A stretch of 53,934 nt of DNA, counting the filler, from a bacterium (lineage in GTDB: Bacteria; UBA9089; CG2-30-40-21; SBAY01): NCBI GenBank assembly GCA_040757115.1. It is 11 parts of 11 records of this genome, joined end to end, with 100 filler letters (N's around TTAATTAATTAA, not from the genome) between each part and the next. Parts side by side here need not be neighbours in the genome. Positions count along the whole stretch, not along the records: positions 5,722 to 27,564 come from JBFLYA010000046.1; positions 27,665 to 28,676 come from JBFLYA010000459.1; positions 28,777 to 29,787 come from JBFLYA010000460.1; positions 29,888 to 30,897 come from JBFLYA010000461.1; positions 30,998 to 32,003 come from JBFLYA010000462.1; positions 32,104 to 53,934 come from JBFLYA010000047.1; 5 more parts are not named here. One strand, given 5' to 3'. The notes beneath the pieces were generated by a model, which worked only from the letters and a program-made list of their open reading frames with translations, did not search any database and was not told the DNA's origin. A program made the translations under genes and the position numbers. Position 1 is the first letter of the stretch, and each line of letters opens with the position of its first letter. This document shows, one piece after another, positions 8,277 to 53,803 of the stretch.

Positions 8277-8506
8277 TATAGCAGTTATTAGTCAAATTTT
8301 ACTCAGAGTGGATAAGTAAAAAATCCCAAATCCCAAGCACCAAATTCCACATACCAAAAAGCGAATTAGAGATTAGTGAATTAGAGATTAGATTTTACTA
8401 ATTCGCTAATTCGCTTAATTCACTAATTCACTAAATGGAATTTGGAATTTGTGATTTGGAATTTCATAGCCATATCTGGGTCAAATTTCGATTAATAAGT
8501 GCTATA
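8277..8506. mobile_element. MITE-like element with TATAGCAGTTATTAGTCAAA / TTCGATTAATAAGTGCTATA ends and nested heptamer hairpins
   Basis: Terminal IRs; an inverted copy with a different core is at 47013-47234. Confidence 0.8.
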
Positions 8507-8547
8507 AATACCATTTAACCAGTGACCAACATAGAAGGAGTGCCAAA

Positions 8548-9393
8548 ATGGATGAATTAAACAAGAAATCAAAAAAGTCTAATATGGAACATCAAAAAGA
8601 TGAGTTAGAAGATAATGGAATGAGAGAGAAAAAAAGGCAGAAGATTTCTGTTCCGCCGCCTTCATTGTATGTGGCAAGTAGCAGAAAAGGTGGAGGGATA
8701 GATTCTCGAATAGTCACTTATCATGACCCTAAAGCCCCTATCGCAGAACAGTATCGCATTCTAAGAACTAATATTCAACGCCTTACGCCGGAAAATCCCC
8801 CTCGCGTCATTGCGGTTACCAGTGCTTTACATCAGGAAGGTAAGACAACTACGGCGATTAATTTAAGTGTAGTTATGGCTCAGGACCTTCATAAAAAAAT
8901 ACTTCTATGTGATTGTGACCTCCGTAAACCAATGGTGCATAAATTGATGGGAATAGATTCCAATAAAGGAATAGCCGAAATCCTTCTTTATGATGCCGAT
9001 ATTGAATCTGTATTACACACTGGTAAAGTGGAGAATTTAACCATTCTTCCTTGTGGCAAAAGACCACCTAATCCTGCAGAATTACTTGGTTCATATAAAA
9101 TGAAAGAATTGATAAATGAATTAAGAACAAAATTTGACTACATAATTATTGATACCCCACCAGTTTTAGCTATTACAGATGTTGGAATTATCGCCGATTA
9201 TATTGATGGAGTAATATTCGCTGTCCAGGCATGGAGAACACAACGAGAGGCAGTTTTAAGAAGTCAAGCACTACTCACAGCCGCACGCGCTAAAATTCTG
9301 GGATTTGTTCTGACAAATGTAGAACATTTTGTCCCAAGATATCTATATCACTATGGTTATGGTTACCAATATGGATATTATCACTACGCATAA
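8548..9393 (+). CDS. CpsD/CapB-family bacterial tyrosine kinase
   Basis: AEQYRILRTN, Walker A EGKTT, DCDLRKP, IIDTPP and a C-terminal Tyr cluster. Confidence 0.92.
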   Translation: MDELNKKSKKSNMEHQKDELEDNGMREKKRQKISVPPPSLYVASSRKGGGIDSRIVTYHDPKAPIAEQYRILRTNIQRLTPENPPRVIAVTSALHQEGKTTTAINLSVVMAQDLHKKILLCDCDLRKPMVHKLMGIDSNKGIAEILLYDADIESVLHTGKVENLTILPCGKRPPNPAELLGSYKMKELINELRTKFDYIIIDTPPVLAITDVGIIADYIDGVIFAVQAWRTQREAVLRSQALLTAARAKILGFVLTNVEHFVPRYLYHYGYGYQYGYYHYA

Positions 9394-10853
9394 AAAAGAA
9401 ATAAAGTAACTGTTACCATTATTTTAAGTGAACTTGCAAGGAATTCCAATGCCTCTTGCTTATTCTTAATTTTCTTATCAACAAATGCCTCCTCTACCTC
9501 TCTTAATAATTTACCTATCAGTGGTCCAGAGGGAAGTCCAAAATGTTCCATTATCTCACTGCCTTTAAGTATCTTTGGCGGCATAATCGTCTGTGAAGGA
9601 GAATAGAATTTATCTATCATATTATTGATTGTTTGGTAGTATTTGTGCAGGTCTTCCGGAGAAACCTTTTGTCCTAAGGTTGCATATCTATCTGCTAATG
9701 TAAGTAATAAACTACTTATCCCCTCTTGCCCCATATCTCTAAAGAATCGATGCAGAGCACGGTTAGTAATTGTTGGTGCTTGAATAAGATAGCCTGGACG
9801 CATATGATTGCGAATGATTAATCCCATCATCTTTTTTTCCTTCGTGCCCAATTTTAGCCTGCTGGCGATTTTTGAGGATATTTTAGCCCCCAATATTTCA
9901 TGACCTATGAACCTGATTTTACCCGAAATCTCTTGTGTCATTGTTTCGTATTTGCCAATATCATGGAATAATGAGATGAGCTTAAGATTAACCAATCTGT
10001 TATGTTCTTTAGTTATAGGCTCGTTTAAATATTTTCTTATTTCATTATGCCATCCGGGAAATAATCTCTCAAGGCTTGAAACTATACCTTCTAACTGAGC
10101 CAATGTCGCTATGGAATGTTCAAAGACAGATAAATGATGATAGCCGTTTTGTTTAATCTCTTTTAAAGGTATAATTTCTGGAATGATTTCTTCAAACAAT
10201 CCTAATTTATCAAAGTGGGTTATAAAAAAACTTGAATTTTTTGAAGATAATATTAAATAAATTTCATTAGTAATTCGTTCTGCACTAACATTGGAAATTA
10301 ATCCTTTTGACTTAACAATGGTCGAGCAAGTATCCTTTTCTATCTCAAATCCTAATTTGCAACACAGCCGAACCGCTCTTAACATTCGTAATGGGTCATC
10401 TTGAAATGTATTGGGAGAGATAATGCGGATAATTTTTTCTTGAAGGTCTTGGACGCCATTATTTTTATCAATAAGTTCAATATTTGCAGATGTTAAATCT
10501 ATGGCGAGGGCATTTATGGTGAAATCTCGCATCTGCAGGTCTTCAGATATATTTTCTCCTTTAAGATTATTAAAGTCTAAATTTAGTGTCTGGTTTTTTA
10601 ATTTACAGACAACTCTTGCTGTTCCTCTTTCTTTTTCTAAGAGGATGAAGGTTCCGCCTAAAACTTCAGCCACTTTTTGAGCAAAGGATAGGGCATCCCC
10701 TTTTATTGCAAAATCATAATCATTAGACTCACGATTTACGAGGAAATCTCGAATATATCCTCCGACAAGATATAGAGGGAGATTCATCTTAATAGATAAA
10801 TCTTTTATTATCGAAAGGGGAGGATTGCAGATTTTTATTTTATCTATGTTCAT
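9384..10853 (-). CDS. Class II tRNA nucleotidyltransferase with HD domain (possibly CC-adding)
   Basis: LVGGYIRD, DYD, RDFTINA, DDPLRMLRA and FHDIGK motifs. Confidence 0.88.
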   Translation of the reverse strand: MNIDKIKICNPPLSIIKDLSIKMNLPLYLVGGYIRDFLVNRESNDYDFAIKGDALSFAQKVAEVLGGTFILLEKERGTARVVCKLKNQTLNLDFNNLKGENISEDLQMRDFTINALAIDLTSANIELIDKNNGVQDLQEKIIRIISPNTFQDDPLRMLRAVRLCCKLGFEIEKDTCSTIVKSKGLISNVSAERITNEIYLILSSKNSSFFITHFDKLGLFEEIIPEIIPLKEIKQNGYHHLSVFEHSIATLAQLEGIVSSLERLFPGWHNEIRKYLNEPITKEHNRLVNLKLISLFHDIGKYETMTQEISGKIRFIGHEILGAKISSKIASRLKLGTKEKKMMGLIIRNHMRPGYLIQAPTITNRALHRFFRDMGQEGISSLLLTLADRYATLGQKVSPEDLHKYYQTINNMIDKFYSPSQTIMPPKILKGSEIMEHFGLPSGPLIGKLLREVEEAFVDKKIKNKQEALEFLASSLKIMVTVTLFLFYA

Positions 10854-10867
10854 CTTTGGTAAATGGT

Positions 10868-10919
10868 AAAAAAGAAAGGAGCAAGATGCAAATTTTACCT
10901 CTTGCTCCTCCTTTTTTTT
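10868..10919. terminator. Probable intrinsic (bidirectional) terminator
   Basis: AGGAGCAAGA/TCTTGCTCCT stem flanked by A- and T-tracts, downstream of 10942-11160. Confidence 0.6.
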
Positions 10920-11459: not shown

Positions 11460-12338
11460 ATGATTCCAAAAGAGGTTTTAAAAAGGGTCAAAAAGATTGA
11501 GATTAGAACTCGTAATTTAGTCAGTGAAATGTTTGCGGGCGAGTATCACTCTGTATTTAAAGGTAGAGGGATAGAATTTACTGAAGTGCGCGAATACCAA
11601 TTTGGAGATGATATTAGAAATATTGATTGGAATGTAACGGCAAAAATGACTCATCCTTATGTAAAAAAATACCGTGAGGAAAGAGAATTAACAGTTATAC
11701 TCGTCATAGATGCAAGTTCCTCAAATAAATTTGGGACAGTCGCACAAATGAAAAGCGAGATAGGTATAGAAATAAGTGCATTGCTGGCATTTTCTGCTAT
11801 AAAAAATAATGACCGAGTAGGATTAATCATCTTTACGGATAAAGTTGAGAAGTTTGTTCCACCTAAAAAGGGTAAAAAACATGTTCTGCGTGTGTTAAGA
11901 GAACTTTTATATTTTAAACCATCAGCAACCAGAACAGATATTAATTGTGCCTTAGAATATTTAAGTCATATCATCAGAAAAAAAGCAGTCGTATTCTTAA
12001 TCTCAGATTTTTTAGCTAAAGATTACGCAACATCATTAAAGATTGCTAATAAACGACATGATGTTATCGCGATTAATATTATTGACCCACGAGAAATAGA
12101 ATTGCCAGATGTGGGATTTATAGAACTAAAAGATGCAGAAACACAAGAAGATGTTTTAATTGATACATCTGATATATCATTTCGTAATACTTTCCGTGAA
12201 TTGAATCTTAAAAAACAAAATCAACTTAATAAATTATTTGGCGGGATTGGCGTAGATTCAATTGATATTTGGACAAATAAATCCTATGTAGAACCACTTA
12301 TGAACTTTTTTATCAAACGAGCAAAAAGGTTTAGGTAA
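11460..12338 (+). CDS. DUF58 (vWA-like, MoxR-associated) protein
   Basis: KGRGIEFTEVREYQFGDDIRNIDWNVTA and LISDF motifs. Confidence 0.9.
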   Translation: MIPKEVLKRVKKIEIRTRNLVSEMFAGEYHSVFKGRGIEFTEVREYQFGDDIRNIDWNVTAKMTHPYVKKYREERELTVILVIDASSSNKFGTVAQMKSEIGIEISALLAFSAIKNNDRVGLIIFTDKVEKFVPPKKGKKHVLRVLRELLYFKPSATRTDINCALEYLSHIIRKKAVVFLISDFLAKDYATSLKIANKRHDVIAINIIDPREIELPDVGFIELKDAETQEDVLIDTSDISFRNTFRELNLKKQNQLNKLFGGIGVDSIDIWTNKSYVEPLMNFFIKRAKRFR

Positions 12339-12372
12339 GTTAATTTGTAAAGGTTCAGTTATCAGTTTTTTC

Positions 12373-12605
12373 GTAACCGTTCACAGCAAGATGCCACAGA
12401 GACGCAGAGAAAAAATTAAAATCTATTCACCAGAGACAGAAATTTCCTTTTTTTGTGCATTTTGGGTCTTTCGTTATTTATTAATCTTTTAATACTTACT
12501 TTTGACTAACTGTTTTTAAGCCTTTTTAAACACCGAAAAACGCGAAAAACAGGGAAAAAAGATATTTGCCTCTCTGTTTCTCTGCGTCTGTGCGGTAAAG
12601 GATTA
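12373..12605. mobile_element. GTAACCGTTCA-family element with eroded right end
   Basis: Left end plus CACAGAGACGCAGAG / CTCTGCGTCTGTGCG arms. Confidence 0.65.
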
Positions 12606-12620
12606 TGGAGGTGAAAAGTT

Positions 12621-12818
12621 ATGTTAGGACCAATTGGACTGCCAGAATTAGGGGTTATTTTAGTGATAGTGTTGGTTATTTTTGGCGCAGGGAAATTACC
12701 TCAGGTAGGTAAAAGCCTGGGGAAAGGGATTAAAGAATTTCAATCGGCAATTAAAGGTAGTGATGAAGAAAGTAATGAGAACAAAAAAGGCGAGATTAAA
12801 GAAAAAACAGGAGAATAA
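12621..12818 (+). CDS. tatA: Twin-arginine translocase TatA
   Basis: [21 protein letters not shown]. Confidence 0.92.
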
Positions 12819-12826
12819 GGATGCAG

Positions 12827-12911
12827 GTAACGAGCCAGCCATAGATGCACACAGACTCTCCTGTGTTATTTATCCATGCTGACCCGTGTTAATCAGTGGC
12901 TGAATAGTTAC
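12827..12911. mobile_element. Short GTAAC...GCTGAATAGTTAC element
   Basis: Right half is the reverse complement of 26424-26450. Confidence 0.65.
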
Positions 12912-12924
12912 CCTCACTTTCTCT

Positions 12925-13069
12925 TATAGTAAGTATTAACCAAAAGTTCACATTAGTATTGTTGATAGTTGATGGTTGATAGTCTATGAAACTATCAACT
13001 ATAAACTATCAACCATCAACCCTGTTGCTATATCTGTTCTATGAGAAATTTTCGTTAATAACTACTATA
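12925..13069. mobile_element. MITE-like element TATAGTAAGTATTAACC...GTTAATAACTACTATA with a (GTTGATR)n/(AACTATM)n hairpin
   Basis: Near-identical copies at 38174-38318 and 52046-52246. Confidence 0.88.
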
Positions 13070-13086
13070 TCTGTGAGGTGATAGGG

Positions 13087-13296
13087 ATGTTTGGAATTGG
13101 TATGTCAGAATTGATTATTATTCTTATAATTGCTCTTATTGTTTTTGGTCCTAAAAGGATGCCGGAAATGGGTAAGGCTCTGGGACGGGCAATGAAAGAA
13201 TTCAGAAAGGCAACACAAGAATTAAAAGAAGAATTACAATTTAATGAATCTGGAGGGCATTTAGAGAAAGAAAAAACTAAAGAATTACTCGGTTAA
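13087..13296 (+). CDS. tatA: Second TatA/TatB-family subunit
   Basis: MFGIGMSELIIILIIALIVFGPKRMPEMGKALG. Confidence 0.85.
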   Translation: MFGIGMSELIIILIIALIVFGPKRMPEMGKALGRAMKEFRKATQELKEELQFNESGGHLEKEKTKELLG

Positions 13297-13355
13297 GAGG
13301 AGATTCACGGTTAATCTCAAAACCTTGAACCCTGTGAACCCAATTAACTCCTTTT

Positions 13356-13658
13356 TAGGGTTCTGCAAAATAGGATTTGGGGGAGACAACAAATAAATAT
13401 CAAATATTAAATATCAAAATGCAAAATTACAAATCAAATTTCAAAAAGGAAATAGCAGGGTTTCTCAAAGAGTTGGAGGAATTTGGTAATATCTTTGCTT
13501 CAAGTATTTTAACGCTGAAAGGAAAGAGATAATTTTACATTTTGATATGTAATTTTTATATTTGCTTTTTGCATTTTGCTCTTTGGAGGAAATTGATAAA
13601 AATAGAGGTTTTAAATACCCGCTTAAAAACTACAATTTCCTATTTTTGCAGAACTCTA
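13356..13658. mobile_element. MITE with TAGGGTTCTGCAAAA / TTTTGCAGAACTCTA ends and a 10-bp flanking direct repeat AACTCCTTTT
   Basis: Direct repeats at 13346-13355 and 13659-13668. Confidence 0.85.
13419..13532 (+). pseudogene. In-frame internally deleted four-helix-bundle (TIGR02436-like) gene remnant
   Basis: Manual translation MQNYKSNFKKEIAGFLKELEEFGNIFASSILTLKGKR*; N- and C-termini resemble that family. Confidence 0.6.
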
Positions 13659-13666
13659 AACTCCTT

Positions 13667-14137
13667 TTAAAATATATCCTTTGGATTTAAATTTTTAAGT
13701 TCCTCTTTAAATCTTCTCATTTCCTCATCATCAATAGGATGTTGGGGCATAGAAATGGTGCTTATCACATGGTCTGTAACAAAAATAGGTGAATCGGTTC
13801 TTAAAGCTAATGCAATTGCATCACTTGGCCGAGAATCTACCTCAACTAAATTGTTCCCATAATTAATAAATACTTTAGCAAAATAAGTGTTATTACAAAG
13901 TGCCGTAATTACTATTTTATCGACCTCTCCACCCATAGTTTCAATAACTGATTTCAATAAATCATGGGTTAGTGGTCGTGGTGGAAGTATTCCTTCTAAT
14001 GCAAAAAGTATTGCCTGTGCCTCAAATATACCCACCCAAATTGGAAGTGCTTTTTGCCCATCCTCATTTTTCAAAATAATAATAGGCATATTATTATTAT
14101 CAACCGCTATTCCTACTACCTTCATTTGTTCTATCAC
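13667..14137 (-). CDS. Bifunctional nuclease domain protein (DUF151)
   Basis: LPIWVGIFEAQAI, PRPLTHDLL and DSRPSDAIALALR motifs. Confidence 0.92.
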   Translation of the reverse strand: MIEQMKVVGIAVDNNNMPIIILKNEDGQKALPIWVGIFEAQAILFALEGILPPRPLTHDLLKSVIETMGGEVDKIVITALCNNTYFAKVFINYGNNLVEVDSRPSDAIALALRTDSPIFVTDHVISTISMPQHPIDDEEMRRFKEELKNLNPKDIF

Positions 14138-14316
14138 TTTTTATTCCCTCCATTTCTTTAAAAAATTTATTAGTTAATTATAGATTACCTTATTTTTTGC
14201 AAAAAGTCAACAGAAATTTTTGGTAGTGTGTAATGGGGCAGTGGGGGAGCGTTCACAATTTGGGACTTGTGGTTAGTTTATAGATTTTTCAAGGGGATTT
14301 TGCCATTTTAAAATTC

Positions 14317-14802
14317 GTAAGCGTTCAGCCACACAGACACAGAGTTCACAGAGAATTAAGGAAAGTAGCCACAAATGGATACGAATTAACCTCTGACATC
14401 CCATAAATGTAGTGCGAAGCTTTAAGTTCGCCTTTTGGCTTGCCAGAAGCGAATCTAACGCCTCGCAGTACAAATCTTTGTAAGCGTTCAGGTGGTGTAA
14501 GAAAAGGAGATATGGAGATAAAGGAGATAAGGGGATATATTTAGGAGTTTTTGGTGAAAGGATTAGGGTTAGGAAGCTGGTTTGGTTTAGGGGTTATAAA
14601 AGTTAGTCTTTTTGCATAACCATTTTGCCCAATTATCCAGGAAATTTATAATCTCCACATCTCCCCAATCCCCTTATCTTCCTTCTTACACTTCTAATGT
14701 ATAACCTGAACGGTTACAAATCTTTATTGTATTTGTGTTCATTCGTGGTTATATATTTCCTCTGTGTTCTCTGTGACTCTGTGGCTATATCCTGACGATT
14801 AC
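14317..14802. mobile_element. Outer GTAAGCGTTCAG element carrying a nested element
   Basis: Ends GTAAGCGTTCAG / CCTGACGATTAC; right part matches 135-207. Confidence 0.75.
14480..14717. mobile_element. Nested GTAAGCGTTCAGG...CCTGAACGGTTAC element with 8-bp TSD AAATCTTT
   Basis: Direct repeats at 14472-14479 and 14718-14725. Confidence 0.88.
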
Positions 14803-14853
14803 CAAAAAATCATTTGCATTTTAAGCATGAATGTGATATACTAAAAATGAATT

Positions 14854-15657
14854 ATGGATACGAAATCTTTATTACAATTAATATCTCTATTCTTCACCCC
14901 CTGTAAAGGGGCTTCTAAACTTCCAAAAGGATACAAGGAAATTAAAGTCAAAACCCCAGATGGGATTAAAATTGCCTTTAATGAATTAAATAGCGGGAAA
15001 AATAAGGTCATTATTATCTGCCATGGGATTAATGAATACAAAGATTCTCCTGTATTTACCAGTATCAGCAGGGAATTTGAGGAGGAATATGATGTCATTA
15101 ATATGGATTTGCGAGGGCATGGGAGAAGTGGGGGTAAATGCACCTTAACGGCATTAGAACCTTATGATTTAAAAGCAGTAGTGGATTATGCCCGCAAAAC
15201 CCATGAAAAGGTGGGTGTGATTGGCTTTTCTCTCGGTGCAGGCACAGCTATTTTGGAAACTGCTGACTATAAAAATATTGATTCTCTTATTCTAATTAGT
15301 TCATTTACAGGGATTTTAAAGGGAAATTTCAGATTCTGGGAAAAGGAGGCATTTAATAGTGTAAAAAGACATTTCAATGATTGTTACAAAAGGGCTAAAA
15401 TCGGAAATGTATTTTTACCCAAAAACGACCCGATAGATGTTATTGATAAAATCTCGCCAATACCCATCCTCTTTTTACACGGAACAGAAGATTGGGTATT
15501 TGATGTTTCTCATAGCCAAAAGCTTTATGAAAAGGCTAAAGAACCCAAAAAACTAATTATCTTTGAAAATGCCGCCCATGCGGAAGACTTATATACAAAA
15601 TTCCCGAAAGAATTCAGAAATATCTGTCTTGAATGGTTTAAGGAAACAATGAAATGA
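14854..15657 (+). CDS. Alpha/beta hydrolase
   Basis: HG, DLRGHGRS, GFSLGA nucleophile elbow, HGTED and AAH motifs; TTGCAT(14814)-17-TATACT promoter upstream. Confidence 0.9.
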   Translation: MDTKSLLQLISLFFTPCKGASKLPKGYKEIKVKTPDGIKIAFNELNSGKNKVIIICHGINEYKDSPVFTSISREFEEEYDVINMDLRGHGRSGGKCTLTALEPYDLKAVVDYARKTHEKVGVIGFSLGAGTAILETADYKNIDSLILISSFTGILKGNFRFWEKEAFNSVKRHFNDCYKRAKIGNVFLPKNDPIDVIDKISPIPILFLHGTEDWVFDVSHSQKLYEKAKEPKKLIIFENAAHAEDLYTKFPKEFRNICLEWFKETMK

Positions 15658-16355
15658 CATTAATACAACTTGGCTTTACATTATTTATGTATCTCCTGGG
15701 AACGGTGTTTGTGGGAATATGTTTATTGCCGGGACTATCTCTTACTTTTATTATCTGGCAAAACTCATCCGGATTAATCCTTCCCTTAAGGATATTAAGT
15801 ATTTCCCTATCGTTAGCCGCCACCTATTTTATCTACGGAATTACTCTAATCTTTGTCATTGGGCTTTGTCGAGTCATATTTAGATTAAAGTTAAAGGAAG
15901 GCGAATATCCTTATTTCTCCATTGGGGCAATGAAATGGGCATTTACCAATGCCTTTGTCTTACTGGTCAATGTTACCTTTATGGACTTTATGATGCTGAC
16001 ACCGTTAAATATCCTGTTTTATCGAATGATGGGGGCGAAGATAGGGAATAGGGTGCAAATCAACTCCAAAAAATTGGCAGATGTCTCCCTCATAGAAATA
16101 GGCGATGATACGGTCATCGGAGGAGATGCTGTCTTGATTTGTCATGTGGCAGAAAGGGGAAGATTAAAACTTAAACCTGTGAAAATCGGAAGTAAGGTAA
16201 CGGTAGGATTAAATTCTATCATCTTGCCTGGTGTAGAAATTGGGGATTCGTCAATCATAGATATTTGCTCAGTCATCCGTAAAAATGAAAAACTACCTCC
16301 AAAAACAGTTTTTAGCAGTATATCTGCTAAAAATATACGGCAAAAAGAAAAGTGA
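15654..16355 (+). CDS. Membrane-anchored hexapeptide-repeat (LbH) acyltransferase-like protein
   Basis: N-terminal TM helices; GAKIGNRVQI, IEIGDDTVIG and VKIGSKVTVG repeats; ATGA overlap with the upstream gene. Confidence 0.75.
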   Translation: MTLIQLGFTLFMYLLGTVFVGICLLPGLSLTFIIWQNSSGLILPLRILSISLSLAATYFIYGITLIFVIGLCRVIFRLKLKEGEYPYFSIGAMKWAFTNAFVLLVNVTFMDFMMLTPLNILFYRMMGAKIGNRVQINSKKLADVSLIEIGDDTVIGGDAVLICHVAERGRLKLKPVKIGSKVTVGLNSIILPGVEIGDSSIIDICSVIRKNEKLPPKTVFSSISAKNIRQKEK

Positions 16356-16367
16356 TTAGTTTATTAA

Positions 16368-16860
16368 AGGGACTCGGGGCTCGGGACTCGGGACTCGGGG
16401 CTCGGGACTCGGGAATAAAAGAATCCCCTAACCCCGGAAGTGTGAGTGTCAATGAAGAAAGGTTTCAATTCCTTAACTGACACTGACACTTATTTTCAGG
16501 AGAACGGTCATGAACCATTAGTTCACAAATGAAGATGAGAATAGTAGGTAGGAGATAGAAGGTAGGAGGTAAGGAGATAAGCGTGAGGAGTGGTGTTTTC
16601 TTTACTTTCTACTTTCTACTCTCTACTTTCTTATTTTCAGGAGAATAGTAGGTAGGAGATAGAAGGTGGAAGATGGGGAGATAAGCGTGAGGAATGATGT
16701 TTTCTTTACTTTCTACTTTCTACTCTCTACTTTCTTATTTTCAGGAGAATAGTAGGTAGGAGATAGAAGGTGGAAGATGGGGAGATAAGCGTGAGGAGTG
16801 GTGTTTTCTTTACTTTCTACTTTCTACTCTCTACTCTCTACTTTCTTATTTTCAGGAGAA
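16368..16860. repeat. Composite repeat block: (GGGACTC)n, an ATTTTCAGGAGAA unit (16492-16542), and three tandem 104-111-bp units from 16537, 16641 and 16745
   Basis: Direct tandem repetition; reverse-complement copies at 35761-36003 and 48870-49098. Confidence 0.88.
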
Positions 16861-16865
16861 GTAGA

Positions 16866-18509
16866 ATGCTCAAAGGGTTAAATAGTATTGAAGATATAAT
16901 AGATACTCTGAAGAAATATGGTGAAAAAATAGCCCTTCAGATAAAAGGAGATACAGGGTTTCATAGTTTATCATATCTTGAACTAAATAATAGAAGTTTT
17001 GATGTTTCATCGACATTGATTAAATCAGGGGTTGAAAAAGGAGACAGAATTGCAATCCTTTCTGAAAATAGACCCGAATGGGCAATTGCCTTCTTTGGCA
17101 TTATCTTTTCCGGGGCAATCGTTGTGCCGCTCGACATCAAACTAAAAGAAAAAGAATTGACTTACATCCTCAATAATTGTGAGGCAGAATATATCTTCGC
17201 CTCTGCCAGATTTATTGACCTCATCAAAACTCTAAAAACTAAAATTAGAATGGTCATATCCCTGGATGAAAAGATAGGGGAAGATATTCTTTCTTTAAAA
17301 GAGTTAAAGTCTGTTGAAGGAGAACTTAAACACCGTGCCATAGAACTAAACGATACTGCGGTAATTATTTACACCTCAGGGACTACCGGCAATCCTAAAG
17401 GTGTAGAACTGACTTATCAGAATCTTTTTTTTCAAATTTCCTCCTTTGGTAAAATGCTCAAATATGGAGCTAAGGATAATTTCCTCTCTATTTTGCCATT
17501 AAATCATGCCTATGAACTTATCTGTGGATTTTTAGGACCACTTCACGGTGGCTCATCCATTACCTATCTGCGGAGTTTAAAACCTGCAGAAATCATCTCG
17601 ACTATGAAACAAACCCAGACCACAATTATGATTGTTGTGCCTTTGATATTACAGATGTTTTACAAAAATGTGATGAAAGAGATTGAAAAATCCCCAATCC
17701 ATATTAAAAAATCATTTGAGATGATTTTAGTGCTGTCAAAATATTTAGGGAAATGGAATACCATCAGATACCTGCTTTTTAAAAAGGTTCATTTGGGATT
17801 TGGTGGTAGGTTACGGTGTTTTATTAGTGGTGGTGCACCACTTGACCCACAAATAGCCACGAATTTCCAATTAATGGGCATACCTGTGCTTCAAGGTTAT
17901 GGACTTAGTGAAACCTCACCTGTAACCTCAGCTAATACATTTAAGGAAAATCGCCCTGGCTCTGTTGGAAAACCTTTACCAGAAGTAAATGTAAAAATTA
18001 GTGATGAAGGAGAAATACTTATTCAGGGACCCCATTTAATGAAGGGATACTTCAAAGACTCTGCCCTGACACAAGAAGCAATAAGAGATGGTTGGTTTCA
18101 TACCGGAGATATAGGTGAGATTGATAAGGATGGATTTTTATACATTAAAGGCAGGCTAAAAAATCTTATCGTAACCGCTGGCGGTAAGAAAATTCACCCG
18201 GAAGAAGTTGAAGAAGAAATCTTAAAAAGCCCCTGTATCAAAGAGATATGTGTTATCGGAAAACCAGGCAGGAAAGGTGGAGAAGAGGTTTATGCGGTGG
18301 TTGTGCCTGATTATGACTATTTTAAAGAAAAAGATGAGGAAGGGATAAAAAAACTCGTTGAGAAGGAGATAAAAAAATATTGTTCGATCTTAGCCGATTA
18401 TAAGCGGATCGTGGATTTTGAGATATGGAAAGGAGAGTTACCTAAAACTTCGACAAGAAAGGTGAAAAGAAAAGAGATATTGGAAAGGATTCAGCAGGGA
18501 CAAAGATGA
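16866..18509 (+). CDS. Long-chain fatty-acid--CoA ligase (AMP-binding)
   Basis: YTSGTTGNPKG, GYGLSETSP and FHTGDIG motifs; the true start is likely ATG 16866, since the track's N-terminus is translated repeat. Confidence 0.9.
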   Translation: MLKGLNSIEDIIDTLKKYGEKIALQIKGDTGFHSLSYLELNNRSFDVSSTLIKSGVEKGDRIAILSENRPEWAIAFFGIIFSGAIVVPLDIKLKEKELTYILNNCEAEYIFASARFIDLIKTLKTKIRMVISLDEKIGEDILSLKELKSVEGELKHRAIELNDTAVIIYTSGTTGNPKGVELTYQNLFFQISSFGKMLKYGAKDNFLSILPLNHAYELICGFLGPLHGGSSITYLRSLKPAEIISTMKQTQTTIMIVVPLILQMFYKNVMKEIEKSPIHIKKSFEMILVLSKYLGKWNTIRYLLFKKVHLGFGGRLRCFISGGAPLDPQIATNFQLMGIPVLQGYGLSETSPVTSANTFKENRPGSVGKPLPEVNVKISDEGEILIQGPHLMKGYFKDSALTQEAIRDGWFHTGDIGEIDKDGFLYIKGRLKNLIVTAGGKKIHPEEVEEEILKSPCIKEICVIGKPGRKGGEEVYAVVVPDYDYFKEKDEEGIKKLVEKEIKKYCSILADYKRIVDFEIWKGELPKTSTRKVKRKEILERIQQGQR

Positions 18510-18544
18510 AATAAAGAGTCAAAACATTCAGGAAGCGATTTCCT

Positions 18545-18715
18545 ATCACTATAAAAATCAACAATATACTCCCCAATAGGCTTTTGTCTCATAAACTGAT
18601 AGCCATTCATCTTTCTGCTTCTCAAATACTTCCAAAGCAATACTTCCGATAAAACCCCTTGCTTTCTAAGTTCTCTGGCGTAAGTTTTCAATTTCGGATT
18701 GTAATGAATCTTCAT
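18545..18715 (-). pseudogene. Truncated DUF559 (Vsr-like endonuclease) gene
   Basis: YNPKLKTYARELRKQGVLSEVLLWKYLR...FMRQKPIGEYIVDFY, after which similarity ends. Confidence 0.8.
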
Positions 18716-18808
18716 ACTTACAACCCCCTAACCCCCTTTATATACTTACAACCCCCTAACCCCCTTTATATACTTACAACCCCCTAACCCCCTTTATTAA
18801 GGGGGAAT
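18714..18808. repeat. 3 x 28-bp tandem ATACTTACAACCCCCTAACCCCCTTTAT plus CCCCCTTTATTAAGGGGG hairpin
   Basis: Same motif at 31898-31929 and, inverted, at 49201-49270. Confidence 0.85.
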
Positions 18809-18849
18809 ATCTGTCCTCCACCTCTAATCTTTTCTATATTTGGGTGAGG

Positions 18850-19085
18850 GAATTTCGTGAAGCCCTATTCTATCTGTGTTAATCCGTGTCCATCAGTGGT
18901 TGAATGAGGACATCAGTTTTAAGTTTTGAGTTGTAGATTTGACTTTTGACATTTGAGTTTTGAGTTAATATTGTCCAGTTTGATGGGCAAGGCTGAACGG
19001 TTACCTTTTATGTGCTCTAATTTATTTCTATGTCTTCTCTGCGAACTCTTGCGTCTCTGCGGTAAAGGACTACCTGAACGGTTAC
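18850..19085. mobile_element. Stacked element fragments (AATTTCGTGAAGCCCTA end, TTTTGAG heptamers, two CTGAACGGTTAC ends)
   Basis: Recurring termini; 19016-19040 matches 49457-49481. Confidence 0.7.
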
Positions 19086-19092
19086 GAATTAT

Positions 19093-19276
19093 CGACCTGT
19101 GCGGTTAAATGTAAAATGGATAATGTAAAATGAGAAATGTAAAATGAAAATGTATAACTGAAAGGTAATGAGTCTTGCGAAGTCCTAAAATTTCCCATTT
19201 TTCATTTCCTATTTTACATTTTACATTTATTTTTCCTTTGCGTCTCTGCGATGAATTAGTCTAATCGCACAGGTGG
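19093..19276. mobile_element. CGACCTGTGCGGTTA...TAATCGCACAGGT MITE with (AAAATGT)n/(TTTACAT)n arms
   Basis: Near-identical copy at 43099-43268. Confidence 0.88.
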
Positions 19277-19284
19277 AATTTTAT

Positions 19285-19313
19285 TTGACATCTATTTCTA
19301 TATTTGATATAAT
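19285..19313 (+). promoter_or_regulatory. Consensus sigma70 promoter
   Basis: TTGACA-17-TATAAT, 8 nt before ATG 19322. Confidence 0.8.
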
Positions 19314-19321
19314 CTTATTTA

Positions 19322-22300
19322 ATGAAACGAGTAGTGATTATTCTGGCAATATTACTTCTATTGGCGAAGGAATCCACTGCCTCGTTAAGTGATTTCCTTA
19401 ATCCTGGGAGTGCGACTCAAATCAGTGGCACAGTCACATCAATTATTGATGGAGATACCATTAAGGTTGAAATGTCTGGCACGGAAACTACGGTTCGATT
19501 ATTAAGTATTGACACTCCAGAACTTATGGATGAGCCTTTTGCTCAAACCGCAAAAGATTTTGCCTCTCAAACATTATCAACTCAACCCATCCAATTATTT
19601 TATTCTAAAAACCCCACTCAACAATGGGATGACTATGGTAGATTGTTAGCGGTTGTGGTTAAGGATGACGAGATATTCAATCTTAAACTCCTTGAACAAG
19701 GGTTAGCTGTTCGGATGTTTATCTTTAACGATATTATCAAATTCCCTGCCTGGGAAGATGTAGAAATCTGGGCAAGACAACAGGGATTAAATATCTGGTC
19801 AAATATTAATCAGAAAGGAATATTTATCAATGAAATTAACCCGAATCCTGCTGGAACAGATACAGATGCAGAATTTGTCGAATTATATAATAATACTGCA
19901 ACTGCGGTGGATGTAAGTAATTGGGCATTTATCTCTATCTATAATGAATTTATTATCCCTGCTGGAACAACTATTCCTGCAAATGGATATTTAATCATTG
20001 CCCGGACTGATACCGCCAGTTTTAAACAAATATACACAACCACACCACCATCTACGATTATTATCGATGCTGGAGATAATTTAATCCTGCGAAATAGTTA
20101 TATTCCTGAAGAAGACCTGCTCATTCATCTTAAGGCAGATGATAAATCTTATCAAGATTCCCTGACCTACAATTTGGAGTGGGATAATGGTGATGCAAAC
20201 GACACAGGAAGAACCCTTGAGCGAAAAAGCCTTTCTCTTACCAATGTTGGCGATAGCGAAGTAGGTGGTGTGGATGATTTGAACTGGGATGCAAGTCTTA
20301 ATTTAAAAGGCAGTCCTGGAGAATCTAACATCCGTGATGAATTAGATGTGGCAAGCTGGATTATCACCTGCCAGCGGACTACGGGGGCTATCTGCACCGA
20401 TGATTTTCAAACAAAAATCATCCCTTATAAGGCAAATATTGCGGCGATGGGACTACTTGAAAAAGGCGGCTATGAAGGAATAGTCAAAAAGTGGATAGAA
20501 TGGTTTTTCGCACACCTTGAGTGGGGAACAATATATGATTATTTAGTGCAAAGTGACACTGAAATATCCATCTATCCAGCTGAAGCAGAGGATAGAAATC
20601 TTGTCACCTTCTTTTCTCTATTAAAAAAATATTATCAGGCAACTTTCGATGTTGATTTCTTAAAAAATTATCAAAGCCAACTTAATGAGATGGGAATATG
20701 GTTGCTTTTTGTGCTTCAAGACTTCAATGATTATTTAATATGGACAAATACAAATAATGGTGGGGAGCGAAAATTATTGATAAATAATGCAGAATCCTAT
20801 CACGGGTTAAAAGATTTAGCCAGCCTTTATTTTGACCTTGATTTTGATGATAATCTTACTCAGCGTGATCTTTTTAATAGCGGAGCAGAATCTATAAAAC
20901 AAGCCATAAATACAGAATTATGGAACGCTAATTCGTATTATTGGGAAAAAGATAATTTAGGGAATAAAACAGCGTGTAATTGGGCGACCGTTTATCCAGA
21001 TGCCGTTTCACAACTACATACCATCTTGAATAATGTTAATCTACCAGAGGATTCCATAAGTGGGGGACTTTATCAAACCTTTAGCCATTTCCCACCTGAT
21101 ACAGATTTTTATGCTGAAGTTAGTTATGCGGCAAGTTTAATGGCAGATACAACCAATACCGAATTATATCAAGATTCCATTATGGCTAATGTCATCAATC
21201 AAGGTTATCCTTCACCATGGGATGTTGAGGATGCCGGCTTTTATCTGCTTGCGGAAAATAGACTTGCAGAGGTTGAGGAGATTCAACCACTTATCAATCA
21301 ACCTCAAGAACTTTGCCAGAATTTTATAGATTCGAGGATGCTGATTCCCTGGGGAGGTATCCAGGCACAATTTATGAATACTGCCCAACCAAGCCAGACA
21401 GACGGTGTCAATCATGAAGTCCCTTCAGAGGCAACCAGTCAAGCACTACTTTATGCCGCCGCTACCAATGATAAGGCATTTTTTGATGAACAATTTGAGA
21501 TTTTAATAGATAATCATCTCTCCCCAAAAGATGTTTTAGTCTGGAAATTGAAACCAAATAGTGAATGGTGGGAAAATAATGGTGGTAGTTACGCTAATGC
21601 AGCCATTGATGACCTGCGGGCTATTCGAGGATTACTTTTAGCCTATGATAACTTTGGAGATGAAAATTATTTAAATTATGCCAGATTACTTGCCGCTGGA
21701 CTAAAAAGCCATAATATCGAAGGAAATGAATTGCGGGATTATTTCGCCTGGAATGATGGTCTGGAAAACATTAGTCAGGATGTTGTTTTAAGTTATATTG
21801 ACCTTGCCACGATAAAAAGATTAACTGAGTTTGATACTGGCTGGGAAACAATCCTTCAGACTAACAAAAATATTATGCTTGGTGGGACGACCACCTCAGG
21901 TTTATTTTACCACAAATACACTTCAAACCAAAACCAATATTATGGGATGGAAAACAGTTTTATTAATATGATTCATTCGGCGTGGACTGCGGAGAATTTA
22001 GCCCGCTACTGGAAGATTACCGCAGACCAGGAATGTAGAACCGCCTCGACAAAATTCCTGGATTTTGCCAAAAACGAGTATAATACTTATGGAAAAATTT
22101 ATGGGCAATATGATATTAATACCGGAATACACAGTGTTGAATATGAAGATATTGCTGTTTATTCAATTATCGCCAGATTAGCCTTTATACTTGGTGATTT
22201 TGAATTTGCCAGCACATTAAAAAAAAATAAAATCCTGAATTATCAAAATAAAGAGATAAAAAGTCAAACCGTAGGTTGTTTTGGATTTGATTGGACAAAT

Positions 22301-27948: not shown

Positions 27949-27952
27949 GGAC

Positions 27953-31760: not shown

Positions 31761-31761
31761 A

Positions 31762-38066: not shown

Positions 38067-38173
38067 CATAACAGACCCGGAGAATGATTTTAGAAAAAGC
38101 ACTGACAGAGCAAATAATTAGGGCAGTAATATAGCAGTTATTATTCAAAATTTTACTTATAAATGCCGATAAG

Positions 38174-43098: not shown

Positions 43099-43268
43099 CG
43101 ACCTGTGCGGTTAGATGTAAAATGGATAATGTAAAATGAAAATGTATAACTGAAAGGTAATGAGTCTTGCGAAGTACTAAAATTTCCCATTTTTCATTTC
43201 CTATTTTACATTTTACATTTATTTTTCCTTTGCGTCTCTGCGATGAATTAGTCTAATCGCACAGGTCG
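43099..43268. mobile_element. CGACCTGTGCGG MITE with 8-bp TSD AAATTTTT
   Basis: Direct repeats at 43091-43098 and 43269-43276; abuts another CACAGGTCG end. Confidence 0.9.
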
Positions 43269-47012: not shown

Positions 47013-47234
47013 TATAGCACTTATTAATCGAAATTTGACATAGATAGGGTTCTGAAATTCCAAATCACAAATTCCAAATTCCAAATAAATTCAAATAACC
47101 AAAATTCAAAACATTACCCCCATAGTTTGTATTTAGGATTTGAAATTTGGTGCTTATTTGAGATTTGGTGCTTGGGATTTGGGATTTTTTTACTTATCCA
47201 CTCTGAGTAAAGTTTTTGACTAATAACTGCTATA
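47013..47234. mobile_element. Inverted copy of the 8277-8506 MITE
   Basis: Same ends, different (AAATYCC)n core. Confidence 0.82.
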
Positions 47235-48867: not shown

Positions 48868-49523
48868 GTTCTCCTGAAAATAGAGAGTAGAGAGTAGAGA
48901 GTAGAAAGTAGAAAGTAAAGAAAACATCACTTCTCACGCTTATCTCCCTATCTCCCACCTTCTATCTCCTATCTACTATTTTCATCTTCATTTGTGAACT
49001 AACGATTCATGACCGTTTCTCCTGAAAATAGGAAGTAGAAAGTAGAGAGTAGAAAGTAAAGAAAGATAAGCCTCTTCTTTCTCTCTCTACCCTCTACTAT
49101 TTTCATCCTCCTTTGTGTCCACCCTGTGGACATGAGCGTTTCCCCTGAAAATAGACTACAGACCATAGACTATAGACCACGGAACCGATGAAAAGCAAGT
49201 TTATTCCCCCTTAACAAAGGGGGTTAGGGGGTTATTATTCCCCCTTAACAAAGGGGGTTAGGGGGTTGTTGTATTCCTCTCTTGAGAGAGGAAAATCTAC
49301 TTACGATATGCAACAATTCCCTCTCTGATTTTCATCAGGGCAAGTTTTTGACTACAGCAACATTAAAATTGATTAACAAATCTGATTTGCCTGCTGAACA
49401 TTCGGCAAGCAGGTTCTATGTATTTCAATGGCTGCACCAATAATCTTTTCTGTTATCTAATTTATTTCTATGTCTTCTCTGTTCCTCTGCGTCTCTGCGG
49501 TGAATTATTATCTGAACGGTTAC
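48868..49523. mobile_element. Stacked repeats and a GTAACCGTTCAG element (end at 49523) carrying a deleted GxxExxY remnant
   Basis: Modules shared with 16492-16860, 35710-36050 and 53565-53803. Confidence 0.8.
49343..49471 (-). pseudogene. Internally deleted GxxExxY-family gene remnant
   Basis: Reads IEIN*ITEKIIGAAIEIHRT, then LLINFNVAVVKN in another frame. Confidence 0.7.
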
Positions 49524-52045: not shown

Positions 52046-52246
52046 TATAGTAAGTATTAACCAAAAGTTCACATTAGTATTGTTGATGGTTGATAGTTGA
52101 TGGTTGATGGTTGATAGTCTATGAAACTATAAACTATCAACTATAAACTATAAACTATCAACTATCAACTATAAACTATAAACTATCAACTATCAACCCT
52201 GTTGCTATATCTGTTCTATGAGAAAATTTCGTTAATAACTACTATA
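52046..52246. mobile_element. TATAGTAAGTATTAACC MITE copy with expanded heptamer arms, in the hisD 5' region
   Basis: 201 bp versus 145 bp for the other copies, a difference of 8 heptamers. Confidence 0.88.
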
Positions 52247-52262
52247 ATTAACCACAACCACT

Positions 52263-53555
52263 ATGACACAAAAAGGAGATTGCAAAATGGAAATACTTAG
52301 ATTTGAAGAAGATAACGAAAGGATTAAAAAAGTTCTTGAGCGGTCTAACATCAATCTCATTGATGAAGGAATAAAACAAAAGGTAGAAGAGATTGTTTGT
52401 GAGGTGCGGAATTCAGGTGATACCGCATTATTAAAATATACAGCGTTGTTTGATGGAGTAAAATTAGATGATTTAAAGGTTAGCCCGGATGAATTTTTAG
52501 TGGATAATGAATTTCTGCAGAATCTTGAATTGGCGGCGACAAACATTACCAACTTCCATAAACATCAATCCTTTAATTCCTGGACAGTTTCAAGGGAAGA
52601 TGGTGTGATTTTAGGACAATGCTATCGACCAATGGAAATAGTTGGGATTTATGTTCCGGGTGGTCGGGCACCGTATGTTTCAACGGTGTTAATGACGGCT
52701 ATCCCGGCTAAAGTGGCAGGGGTAAAAAAGATTATTCTTTGCACACCTCCTGACAAAAATGGCAAGATTAATCCTTATATTTTGGCGGCAAGTAAGTTAG
52801 CCCGGGTAGATGAGATTTATAAAGTTGGCGGAGCACAGGCAATTGCCGCATTAGCCTTTGGCACTGCCACTATTCCTAAAGTTGACAAGATTGTTGGACC
52901 GGGGAATATCTATGTTACTCTGGCAAAAAAAATAGTCTTTGGTGAGGTAGATATTGATATGGTGGCAGGACCAACTGAGGTAGTAGTTATTGCTGATGCA
53001 CAGGCTAATCCAGAATTTATCGCCGCTGATTTACTCTCGCAGGCAGAACATGACCCACTCTCATTAGCGGTTCTTCTTACTACCTCTTCAGATTTAGCCA
53101 ATCTTGTTTTAAATAAGGTTGAATCACAGTCAAAATTACTTTCTCATCAGGAAACACTCAAACACTCCCTTGATAATTTAACCATTATTATCACCCAAAC
53201 CTTACAGGAGGCGATTAACATATCCAACCAATTTGCCCCAGAACATTTAGAACTACATATTAAAAATCCGATGGAAATATTAGGGAATATTGAACATGCC
53301 GGGGCAATATTTCTTGGTGAATATTCACCCGAATCTGTGGGTGATTATTTTGCTGGACCAAGTCATGTTTTGCCAACCTGTAAATCCGCACGGTTCTTTT
53401 CACCACTTGGCGTAGAAGACTTTTTAAAACGCTCAAGTATCATCTCTTACACGAAACAGGCATTGCTTAAATACGGACAGGAGATTATTAATCTGGCTAA
53501 TTTAGAGGGTTTCGACGGTCATGCCAATGCGGTTAAGGTAAGATTAGAAAAGTGA
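52263..53555 (+). CDS. hisD: Histidinol dehydrogenase
   Basis: YVPGG, GPGNIYV, IDMVAGPTE, SQAEHD, APEHL and GDYFAGPSHVLPT motifs; true start may be ATG 52287-52289 region (MEILRF). Confidence 0.95.
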   Translation: MTQKGDCKMEILRFEEDNERIKKVLERSNINLIDEGIKQKVEEIVCEVRNSGDTALLKYTALFDGVKLDDLKVSPDEFLVDNEFLQNLELAATNITNFHKHQSFNSWTVSREDGVILGQCYRPMEIVGIYVPGGRAPYVSTVLMTAIPAKVAGVKKIILCTPPDKNGKINPYILAASKLARVDEIYKVGGAQAIAALAFGTATIPKVDKIVGPGNIYVTLAKKIVFGEVDIDMVAGPTEVVVIADAQANPEFIAADLLSQAEHDPLSLAVLLTTSSDLANLVLNKVESQSKLLSHQETLKHSLDNLTIIITQTLQEAINISNQFAPEHLELHIKNPMEILGNIEHAGAIFLGEYSPESVGDYFAGPSHVLPTCKSARFFSPLGVEDFLKRSSIISYTKQALLKYGQEIINLANLEGFDGHANAVKVRLEK

Positions 53556-53564
53556 AGAAAGTGA

Positions 53565-53803
53565 GCAACCGTTCAGGTGGTAATTTACCGCAGAGACGCA
53601 GAGGAACAGAGAAGACATGGAAATAAATCAGATAACAGAAAAGATTATTGAGGTAATCTTTGTAATACATAGGACATCAAAACCTTGCACTGATGAAAAT
53701 CAGGGATGGAATTGTTGCCTCTCCTAAATAGATTTTCCCCTCTTGAGAGGGGTTAGAGGTGTGTTTTTCTCTGCGTCTCTGTGTCTCTGCGGTGAAGAGT
53801 TAC
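53565..53803. mobile_element. GCAACCGTTCAGG...GGTGAAGAGTTAC element with a GxxExxY N-terminal remnant (53617-53727)
   Basis: Terminal IRs; translation MEINQITEKIIEVIFVIHRT. Confidence 0.78.

Follow-up and report, generated by a model that had tools for sequence, protein, structure and literature searches.

The window analysed here, the whole 53,934-base stretch of DNA from the bacterial assembly GCA_040757115.1, contains many intergenic hairpins, some of which carry transposon-like ends and the remains of small genes. It is made of joined pieces, which are, in order, five contigs of roughly 1 kb, one of 21.8 kb (5722-27564), another four of roughly 1 kb (27665-32003) and one that spans at least 21.8 kb from 32104 to the end. 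The dividers are ten spacers of the form N44-TTAATTAATTAA-N44, five at 1061-5721 and five at 27565-32103, where they separate the four contigs of about 1 kb, and one 100-N run (36791-36890). From their regular form, the spacers appear to be contig-joining linkers. Because the joints are artificial, pairing or adjacency across any of them is not a real structure, and an apparent 113-nt inverted repeat (29443-29555 and 30040-30152) was rejected as two copies of one element on different contigs. The nine contigs of about 1 kb consist mostly of repeat sequence. The housekeeping genes of the window include those for polysaccharide export, a CCA-adding enzyme, two tatA genes, Rnf and the Tad pilus, among others, and G+C makes up about 35% of the genome. 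Non-coding DNA amounts to 10,587 of 43,674 bases (24%) in the two long contigs, where it lies in 23 intergenic regions.

Inverted arm pairs scoring at least 34 numbered 23 in these 23 regions, as compared with 2 after shuffling, and Tandem Repeats Finder gave 144 rows for the window with periods of mostly 7-10. These results agree with the original prediction, made from the sequence alone, that the hairpin arms are 7-9-nt tandem repeats of many different sequences. A gathering-threshold scan of the window against Rfam gave no match. For the genome-wide figures, we used as a proxy G001, a metagenome-assembled genome (MAG) of 4.7 Mb in 770 contigs that shares 97% identity with the window and comes from a small phylum, of which 24 species genomes were compared. 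In a 283-kb sample of G001, 41% of the intergenic bases recur at least three times. With at most one mismatch allowed, the window has 13 sites of the GTAAC-type end motif GTAASCGTTCAS (0.32 expected), 12 of the TATAG-type motif TATAGYARTTATTA (0.26 expected) and 6 of the CGACC-type motif CGACCTGTRYGG (0.15 expected), and these counts were reached by none of 100 shuffles. More than 15 GTAAC ends had been proposed, a number that the strict pattern does not reach. The sequence TAGRGTTCTGCAAAA forms a single inverted pair in the window, at 13356 and 13658. Exact target duplications, which had been reported for several elements, were found as AAATCTTT (14480-14717), AACTCCTTTT (13356-13658) and AAATTTTT (43099-43268).

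Repeats of this kind could be artefacts of assembly or of contig joining, as the window was concatenated across ten synthetic joints and the Logan contigs of the source sequencing run are broken at every repeat. The word depth in that run was about 300 on unique DNA and up to about 139,000 over the repeats, so the repeats are present in the reads and were not made by the assembler. In addition, unique contigs of the run reach 30-47 nt into the elements from both sides. The source run is probably the sample of origin, and its depth is therefore not independent support. The same elements, with 88-97% identity, lie on many contigs of the independent genome G001, and elements occur across 22 of the 24 genomes of the phylum. 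We consider the chance of an artefact to be close to nil.

The GTAAC-ended elements were searched in a 626-kb set, consisting of the window and 40 stretches of G001, the first 20 of which were picked for matching window repeats. Sixty-three elements with GTAASCGTTCA ends were found, mostly about 150-560 bp long; 37 of them have a perfect 8-bp duplication, and none of the 63 has a 9- or 10-bp duplication. The exact sequence GTAASCGTTCAGG occurs at 579 sites genome-wide in G001 versus 0 for the reversed control, and within the phylum the motif was detected in 22 of 24 genomes, while it was absent from five outgroup genomes from other phyla. A full-length partner is present in G011, a genome of the same order: this 1505-bp element (L280, 1339-2843) has inverted GTAACCGTTCACA ends matching at 13 of 13 positions and encodes a 476-aa open reading frame (ORF) of the IS66 family (PF03050), and the same 13 nt start the window element at 12373. 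According to the available part of the source, the inverted repeats of IS66 begin with GTAAGCG and the duplications are of 8 bp (PMC11946415). Judging from these terminal sequences, the GTAASCGTTCA ends are IS66-type, and the elements have the properties of IS66 miniature inverted-repeat transposable elements (MITEs), namely ends shared with an autonomous IS66 element, an 8-bp duplication, presence or absence at a site, high copy number and no internal transposase. Their inverted repeats start with GTAAGCG or GTAACCG, and their 13-nt ends are identical to those of the full-length copy. They differ from IS66 derivatives in that the cores are unrelated hairpin cassettes of 11 types, not deletion products of the transposase gene, and the full-length copy is of the single-ORF form. 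IS66 fragments on the G001 contigs C698 and C113 were also considered as the partner and rejected, as the exact MITE ends are absent there. As had been predicted, the same ends hold different cores: 61 GTAAC-ended elements of the 626-kb set fell into 11 core clusters, with sizes of 20, 13, 12 and 9 and seven singletons.

In the window, the IS66-type element at 12373-12605 has CGCAGAG-type arms and 18 matches in the G001 sample, and its right terminus is truncated directly before the ribosome-binding site of a tatA gene. The GTAAGC-ended element at 14317-14802, with CACAGAG arms at 14327-14353 and 14760-14786, holds in its loop a second GTAAGC-ended MITE (14480-14717) with the 8-bp duplication AAATCTTT, the right end of which resembles that of the gene-bearing cassette L126. 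Two other GTAAC-ended elements, at 49292-49523 (minus strand, CGCAGAG arms, 22 matches in the G001 sample) and at 53565-53806 (plus strand, degenerate, arms at 53584-53613 and 53767-53796), contain gene remnants, which are described below.

The TATAG-ended elements showed no duplication beyond the terminal TA. TA was found at both ends in 24 of 24 elements, though it belongs to the search motif; TA is the target of IS630 elements. The terminal sequence of about 27 nt lies about 20 nt past the C-termini of IS630-type (DDE_3) transposase remnants in G016 and G019, two further members of the phylum, and from these shared ends we read the TATAG ends as those of IS630-type MITEs. The elements resemble IS630/Tc1-mariner MITEs in beginning and ending with TA, and differ from them in that no full-length autonomous copy was found and the cores are hairpin cassettes or their arms. 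An IS630-like contig of G001 (C696) was rejected as the partner, as its ends (TAAGCTGTT...) differ. Thus, of the end families to be assigned to full-length insertion sequences (ISs), the GTAAC family could be mapped, to the IS66 element of G011, and the TATAG family was placed only beside transposase remnants. The TATAG-ended MITE at 8277-8506 has outer arms of AAATCCC/GGAATTT, at least 15 copies in G001 with 88-97% identity, and a second hairpin with GAATTAGAG arms in its loop (8363-8434); its predicted folding energy is -79.9 kcal/mol (z = -10.3). Another, with GTTGATA/CTATCAA heptamer arms (12925-13069), lies between two small tatA-type genes (12620-12817 and 13087-13296, plus strand). At 38130-38318, a TATAG MITE with GTTGATA arms comes after a solo TATAG end. 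The MITE at 47013-47234, with 20 matches in the G001 sample, has as its core a gene-less arm pair of a four-helix-bundle cassette, and that at 52046-52246 has long GTTGATG/CTATAAA arms of 11 units.

The CGACC ends had an 8-bp duplication in two of three elements. CGACC-ended MITEs of the window are located at 19093-19276 (AAATGTA/CATTTTA arms; at least 10 copies in G001 with 94-97% identity), 33249-33478 (GGAGATA/ATCTCCC arms) and 43099-43268 (8-bp duplication AAATTTTT). The TAGGG family is represented by one TAGGGTTCTGCAAAA-ended element at 13356-13658 with the 10-bp duplication AACTCCTTTT and arms at 13387-13429 and 13530-13571. The fifth proposed end family, ATTTTCA...TGAAAAT, behaved differently from the other four. 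Of 31 copies of TTTTCAGGAG in the 626-kb set, 11 are immediately in front of an ORF start, and an inverted partner within 450 nt is lacking for all 31. This motif is not an IS-like end, but a direct repeat that flanks hairpin units and supplies ribosome-binding sites. Four of the five families, GTAAC, TATAG, CGACC and TAGGG, therefore stand. On the plus strand at 16492-16860, tandem 104-bp hairpin units are each flanked by direct ATTTTCAGGAGAA copies, the last of which is the ribosome-binding site of an AMP-binding gene. About three units lie at 16537-16839, and the locus occupies 399 bases in the window versus 210 in G001; the G001 stretch is about 190 bases shorter, which indicates that the copy number of the 104-bp unit differs between 97%-identical genomes. 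On the minus strand at 35710-36025, upstream of a DegT-family gene, tandem 142-bp units combine a small ATTTTCA...TGAAAAT hairpin module with a hairpin having purine-rich arms. Some of the ATTTTCAGGAGAA...hairpin...GATGAAAAT modules at 35710-36060 (minus strand) and 16492-16545 (plus strand) have a ribosome-binding site followed by an ORF of 3-10 codons.

Empty alleles in a relative were detected for two of the window elements. The elements at 13356-13658 and 14480-14717 are both absent from contig C757 of G001, where a single AACTCCTTTT and one AAATCTTT, respectively, occupy the sites. These results show that the end families are real transposon termini that moved recently. The sequence derives from a groundwater metagenome: the only sequencing runs that matched the window at 12300-19320 were DNA runs of one groundwater study, compared as contigs, and no RNA run was among them. 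In a MAG with an 82%-identical DUF58 protein, the DNA alignment was limited to the gene, and similar but fewer heptamer hairpins were observed.

The hairpin loops had been predicted to carry remnants of small genes, and the intact forms of these genes were therefore examined in G001. GxxExxY corresponds to TIGR04256 / PDDEXK_3 (PF13366), and the four-helix bundle to TIGR02436 (PF05635, the '23S IVS' protein); to our knowledge, both are very large bacterial families with no known function. GxxExxY had 75 matches in G001; the full-length ones number 17 and score 123-159 bits, where the cut-off is 35. For the four-helix-bundle family there were 38 matches, which lie above its cut-off, and 16 of these were taken as full length without stops. 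Inverted tandem-repeat arms bracket all 33 of these intact genes, as the prediction required, and each pair scored above the best of its own 20 shuffles. A flank score of at least 33 was obtained for 15 of 17 GxxExxY and 14 of 16 four-helix-bundle genes (29/33), versus 6 of 109 control ORFs with a length of 200 aa or more. A screen of 572 kb, covering 723 ORFs with a minimum of 70 aa, gave 12 bracketed loci, and 7 of these held GxxExxY or four-helix-bundle genes. The distance from the gene to the start of the arms ranges from a few nucleotides to about 170 nt. Their units vary by cassette (CGCAGAG, CACAAAG, CACAGAT, GGAGAAA, GTCGTAA, GAGTTTAGG, AAATTCC and others), and the two arms of any one cassette stay complementary despite this diversity. 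Close paralogues share arms, and the homology between loci stops at the outer arm edge; the duplicating unit is thus arms plus gene, 450-640 bp in length. The dN/dS ratios between paralogues (0.03-0.26 in seven scorable pairs) indicate purifying selection. In 25 of 29 comparisons with the upstream ORF, and in 24 of 26 with the downstream ORF, the cassette gene has the same orientation as its neighbour, mostly at a distance of 23-170 nt, and the spacers holding cassettes are largely occupied by the arms. In the predicted fold of the L123 cassette, the 5' arm pairs with the 3' arm. We conclude that the unit of hairpin plus small gene is a real, distinct module.

In 21 GxxExxY proteins, the residues G24, E27, Y30, D67, E77 and K79, which make up the GxxExxY and D...ExK motifs, are invariant. 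The structural model of this protein was confident (pLDDT, the predicted local distance difference test score, of 95.6), and Foldseek matched it to Cas4, lambda exonuclease and Hjc resolvases, all at E values of 2e-3 or weaker; a sequence comparison with solved structures gave no match. A four-helix-bundle cassette protein of G001 matched the solved Xanthomonas S23p structure 2gsc at an E value of 5e-16. The cassette layout also occurs in other phyla, where 12 of 20 four-helix-bundle genes had a flank score of at least 33 and 12 of 18 GxxExxY genes scored above shuffles; the genomes concerned are labelled Ignavibacteriaceae, Bacteroidetes, Saprospiraceae and Scalindua. Several of these GxxExxY cassettes share CACRRAG-type arm units. 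DUF559, the third proposed cargo, has only three partial copies in G001, one of them bracketed; we regard it as a weak, marginal cargo. An 80-aa HypA-like ORF of G001 (L023, 282-524, minus strand) between inverted (GTCTGACAG)n-type arms is either a possible extra cargo or a chance insertion.

The window contains no intact cassette gene, and the predicted remnants of three small-gene families were confirmed at their places. A C-terminal remnant of a four-helix-bundle gene (TIGR02436; 13455-13532, plus strand) lies in the loop of the element at 13356-13658. Its score against the last 22 residues of a G001 four-helix-bundle protein was 50, as compared with 26.5 ± 3.5 for shuffles, 1 of 300 of which reached it. 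GxxExxY remnants are present at 49376-49471 (minus strand, E value 2e-5), as an internally deleted gene inside the element at 49292-49523, and at 53617-53715 (plus strand, N-terminal part, E value 2e-3), inside that at 53565-53806. A DUF559 remnant at 18500-18604 (minus strand) matched a G001 DUF559 copy by tblastn at an E value of 2.9e-5 and has repeats on one side only, AACCCCCT units at 18714-18797. Intermediates of this decay are found in G001, one being an element that keeps the first and last parts of an L126-type gene with the middle deleted.

To what extent the cassettes lie within transposon ends was determined for the 33 intact G001 cassettes. Seven are flanked on either side by the members of a recognised end pair, and a further two carry a single recognisable CTTATC end. 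GTAAC ends wrap three GxxExxY cassettes and one four-helix-bundle cassette, and CTTATC-type ends wrap one and two, respectively. Since each type of end wraps both gene families, the ends are interchangeable, and since the remaining cassettes lack a recognised end pair, the wrapping shell is optional. The core of the TATAG MITE at 47013 (also that at 8277) consists of the arms of the four-helix-bundle cassette L158, which in G001 sits in CTTATC ends; the arms of 47013 and L158 are 89% identical over 57 nt (E value 2e-15) and 88% over 34 nt. The prediction that one core occurs under different ends thus holds for this pair, but the example originally given for it, at 14494 and 29990, comes down to a 19-nt identity in one arm only. 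Nesting is seen often: the loop of 14317-14802 contains the MITE at 14480, and in nine contigs of G001 the same outer ends, those of a cluster of 13 elements, hold a TATAG MITE instead. The further proposal, that the hairpin-and-gene units form a class of their own spread in trans by several ISs, is supported as to the module. As only 7 of 33 cassettes are wrapped, IS transposases capture them only occasionally, which cannot be their sole means of spread. The cassettes are pan-bacterial and the GTAAC shell is limited to the phylum among the genomes tested, which fits a lineage-specific vehicle with a widespread passenger.

These observations are best accounted for, in our view and with moderate confidence, by two nested layers of selfish DNA, hairpin cassettes and the non-autonomous MITEs enclosing them. 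The first layer would consist of a tiny gene, for a GxxExxY nuclease of the PD-(D/E)XK type, a four-helix-bundle '23S IVS' protein or, rarely, DUF559, between inverted arms of 7-9-nt units, placed in sense orientation in short spacers of co-directional genes. Read-through from the host gene may transcribe the cassettes, and base pairing of the arms in the transcript would give a long stem cleavable by RNase III, as in the ORF-bearing intervening sequences (IVSs) of 23S rRNA, so that a cassette might be expressed or excised without disabling the host transcript. Internal deletion of cassettes leaves gene remnants or gene-less hairpins. The second layer would be formed by MITEs with IS66 (8-bp duplication), IS630 (TA target), CGACC (8 bp) and TAGGG (10 bp) ends. 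Cassettes or their remains may have come between two ends, probably by insertion into the palindromic loop of a MITE, and a transposase present in low copy could then have amplified the composite in trans to hundreds of copies, acting on the short ends whatever lies between them.

Several results weigh against this model of nested cassettes and MITEs. On the side of the MITEs, the full-length G011 IS66 element has no target duplication around it and lies in a genome of the same order other than G001, in which IS66 transposase is represented by fragments only; for the TATAG elements, neither a full-length IS630 partner nor an empty site was found. An empty site was also not found for a naked cassette without IS ends, and at the one orthologous locus checked in the relative G002 there was no precise empty site, other elements being present in the spacer. 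The proxy G001, and not the window's own genome, is the basis of the genome-wide figures, and the element densities in the 626-kb set are biased upward, as the first 20 stretches were picked by repeat match. On the side of the RNA stem, the sense-strand count of G:U pairs versus A:C mismatches was 109 versus 68 overall (p = 0.0025), but this rests on the four-helix-bundle set from other phyla (41 versus 12), and the count in G001 alone was 50 versus 42. RNase III needs no common unit, yet CACRRAG-type units recur across phyla, and therefore a sequence-specific reader may exist.

The cassettes could also be autonomous DNA elements, with the arm units as binding sites of the encoded protein and the RNA stem as incidental. 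The GxxExxY nuclease, which is resolvase-sized, would then cut hairpin or cruciform DNA, and repair would copy the gene into matching gene-less hairpins. The invariant catalytic D...ExK residues and the purifying selection argue for this, as do the CACRRAG-type units around GxxExxY genes in distant phyla, the sharing of arms by closely related genes, the abundance of gene-less hairpins with the same arms (one of them in G002), and the bracketing of four of six testable Y1-transposase genes of G001 by inverted REP-like repeats (REP, repetitive extragenic palindrome), on which proteins of this kind act. The confident model points the same way, with its matches to Cas4, lambda exonuclease and Hjc, none of which is better than an E value of 2e-3. 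Four-helix-bundle cassettes, on the other hand, have the same layout without a nuclease and with very diverse arms, the sense co-orientation with neighbours (49/55) is not predicted by a purely DNA-level mechanism, and the remnants retain both gene ends, which indicates decay by deletion and not colonisation. We give this explanation a low but appreciable probability; a DNA-level, sequence-specific role for the GxxExxY nuclease is possible in view of the recurring arm units and the REP-like bracketing of Y1 genes. A combination of the two mechanisms, which we rate as still somewhat more doubtful, is that IS66 and IS630 transposases scatter gene-less hairpins as landing pads, and the cassette proteins, among them the GxxExxY nuclease as a minimal PD-(D/E)XK enzyme of about resolvase size, recognise the tandem-unit arms in hairpin or cruciform form, cut them and re-install the gene by repair, with the arms as register-tolerant homology.

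It is improbable in our judgement that the hairpins are primarily host elements, i.e., terminators, mRNA stabilisers or quadruplex or ribosome-binding-site switches, into whose loops genes and MITEs prefer to insert. Loop insertions do exist (14480 in 14317-14802, 8363-8434 in 8277-8506, and TATAG MITEs in CACAGAG hairpins), of 31 TTTTCAGGAG motifs lying at the edges of hairpins, 11 serve as ribosome-binding sites, and heptamers between aligned ORFs are described as quadruplex-forming host repeats in Xanthomonas and Nostoc in the available part of the literature (PMC4692102). Host elements would hardly explain that arms and gene duplicate jointly to new loci, that there are hundreds of copies with target duplications, or that the hairpin content differs at the same locus between 97%-identical genomes and is wholly different at one locus in comparison with a relative; no Rfam family matched either. 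Spread of the hairpins as REPIN-like repeats by the Y1 transposases (RAYT, i.e., REP-associated tyrosine transposase, or IS200-like) of the genome, and not by IS66/IS630 or cassette genes, seems more improbable again. G001 has nine Y1_Tnp matches, four of the six testable Y1 genes are flanked by inverted, often tandem REP-like repeats, and one lies 377 bp downstream of a four-helix-bundle cassette. The repeats adjoining Y1 genes, however, are 16-30-nt units unlike the cassette arms, and the exact 8-bp duplications in 37 of 63 GTAAC elements do not fit Y1 transposition, which is not known to produce target duplications.

The closest known system to the cassettes is the ORF-bearing 23S rRNA IVS of Coxiella, Leptospira, Xanthomonas and Brucella. 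According to the available part of the report (PMC4990558), the repeats at its two ends pair into a 28-bp stem; heptamers (GACAGAT) in tandem, variable in number among strains, lie directly upstream of the ORF, with the 5' RNase III site at the first repeat; the loop holds an often decaying S23p four-helix-bundle ORF; the element is cut out by RNase III; and it is discussed as selfish DNA whose origin is unknown. The cassettes share the stem, the tandem heptamers and the four-helix-bundle ORF (TIGR02436; 2gsc, E value 5e-16), the last of which does not apply to the GxxExxY cassettes. They differ in lying between protein-coding ORFs and not in rRNA, none of which Rfam found in the window, in numbering dozens per genome, in also carrying GxxExxY genes, and in sitting inside transposon ends in some cases; RNase III cutting, known for the IVS, is a proposal for the cassettes. 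The REP/REPIN-RAYT system also has a small gene in inverted short repeats that are dispersed gene-less as well, a layout shown by the Y1 genes of G001. The cassette genes differ in not encoding a Y1 transposase, in having their own arm sequence for each cassette, and in being present in many copies per genome instead of one. At L316, L315, L146 and L314 of G001, Y1 genes lie in inverted, partly tandem REP-like repeats, e.g., GGTAATCTGGGGACAC about five times upstream.

Short intergenic heptamer repeats are an old, unexplained feature of several phyla. The STRR (short tandemly repeated repetitive), GGGNATC and TAACTGA repeats of cyanobacteria, Xanthomonas and Beggiatoaceae resemble the arms in being 7-nt tandem units between aligned ORFs (PMC4692102, PMC4679880); as far as the available parts of these reports go, they are direct arrays with structural or regulatory roles and are not linked to flanked small genes or transposon ends. 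GGGACTC arrays on opposite strands of the window (16369-16414 and 35610-35643) resemble the quadruplex-forming GGGNATC type. The literature searched gave no link of GxxExxY genes or non-rRNA four-helix-bundle genes to tandem-repeat arms or MITEs; GxxExxY receives passing mentions, and the function of PDDEXK_3 / PF13366 / TIGR04256 is given as 'unknown'. The original prediction knew of no formal description of such a system. As the cassette layout matches the ORF-bearing 23S rRNA IVS, the class is not wholly undescribed, and it is the nesting in IS66/IS630 MITEs that is new here, together with the assignment of one end family to IS66 and another to IS630, the strain-level empty sites, and the occurrence of one cassette type under different ends. 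The window is a composite of known kinds of element around a widespread, unexplained cassette.

Some other features of the two genomes are described here. The plus-strand gene at 19322-26395 encodes a 2357-aa protein with staphylococcal-nuclease, lamin-tail and carboxypeptidase-regulatory-like domains and a weak C-terminal match to a type IX secretion system (T9SS) sorting domain, and it is probably a giant secreted or surface nuclease. The fragmented ORF at 36113-37089 (minus strand) probably represents a repeat protein that was mis-assembled; it matches a DUF5122 beta-propeller and contains a 156-bp tandem repeat (36465-36790) as well as the 100-N gap. The Rpn/TIGR01784 putative transposases of G001 were rejected as a MITE partner; the homology among their copies stops at the ORF, and one of eight testable copies is bracketed, by two MITE copies. 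The 25 matches to this family (L194-L213), many of them at contig ends, are diverged paralogues without common ends, and several of the proteins have long (KGME)n-like low-complexity tails.

The present analysis ties the GxxExxY and four-helix-bundle families and the heptamer repeats together as one cassette design. If the landing-pad mechanism were true, both families, the heptamer repeats and the rRNA IVSs would be parts of one ancient pan-bacterial homing system. The nesting explains the large non-coding share of the two long contigs, much of which is repeated hairpins. Two defined substrates for tests also result, namely a nuclease plus the repeats that flank it and an IS66-family transposase plus its MITE. 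For annotation, spacers of this kind are better read as mobile DNA than as regulatory RNA.

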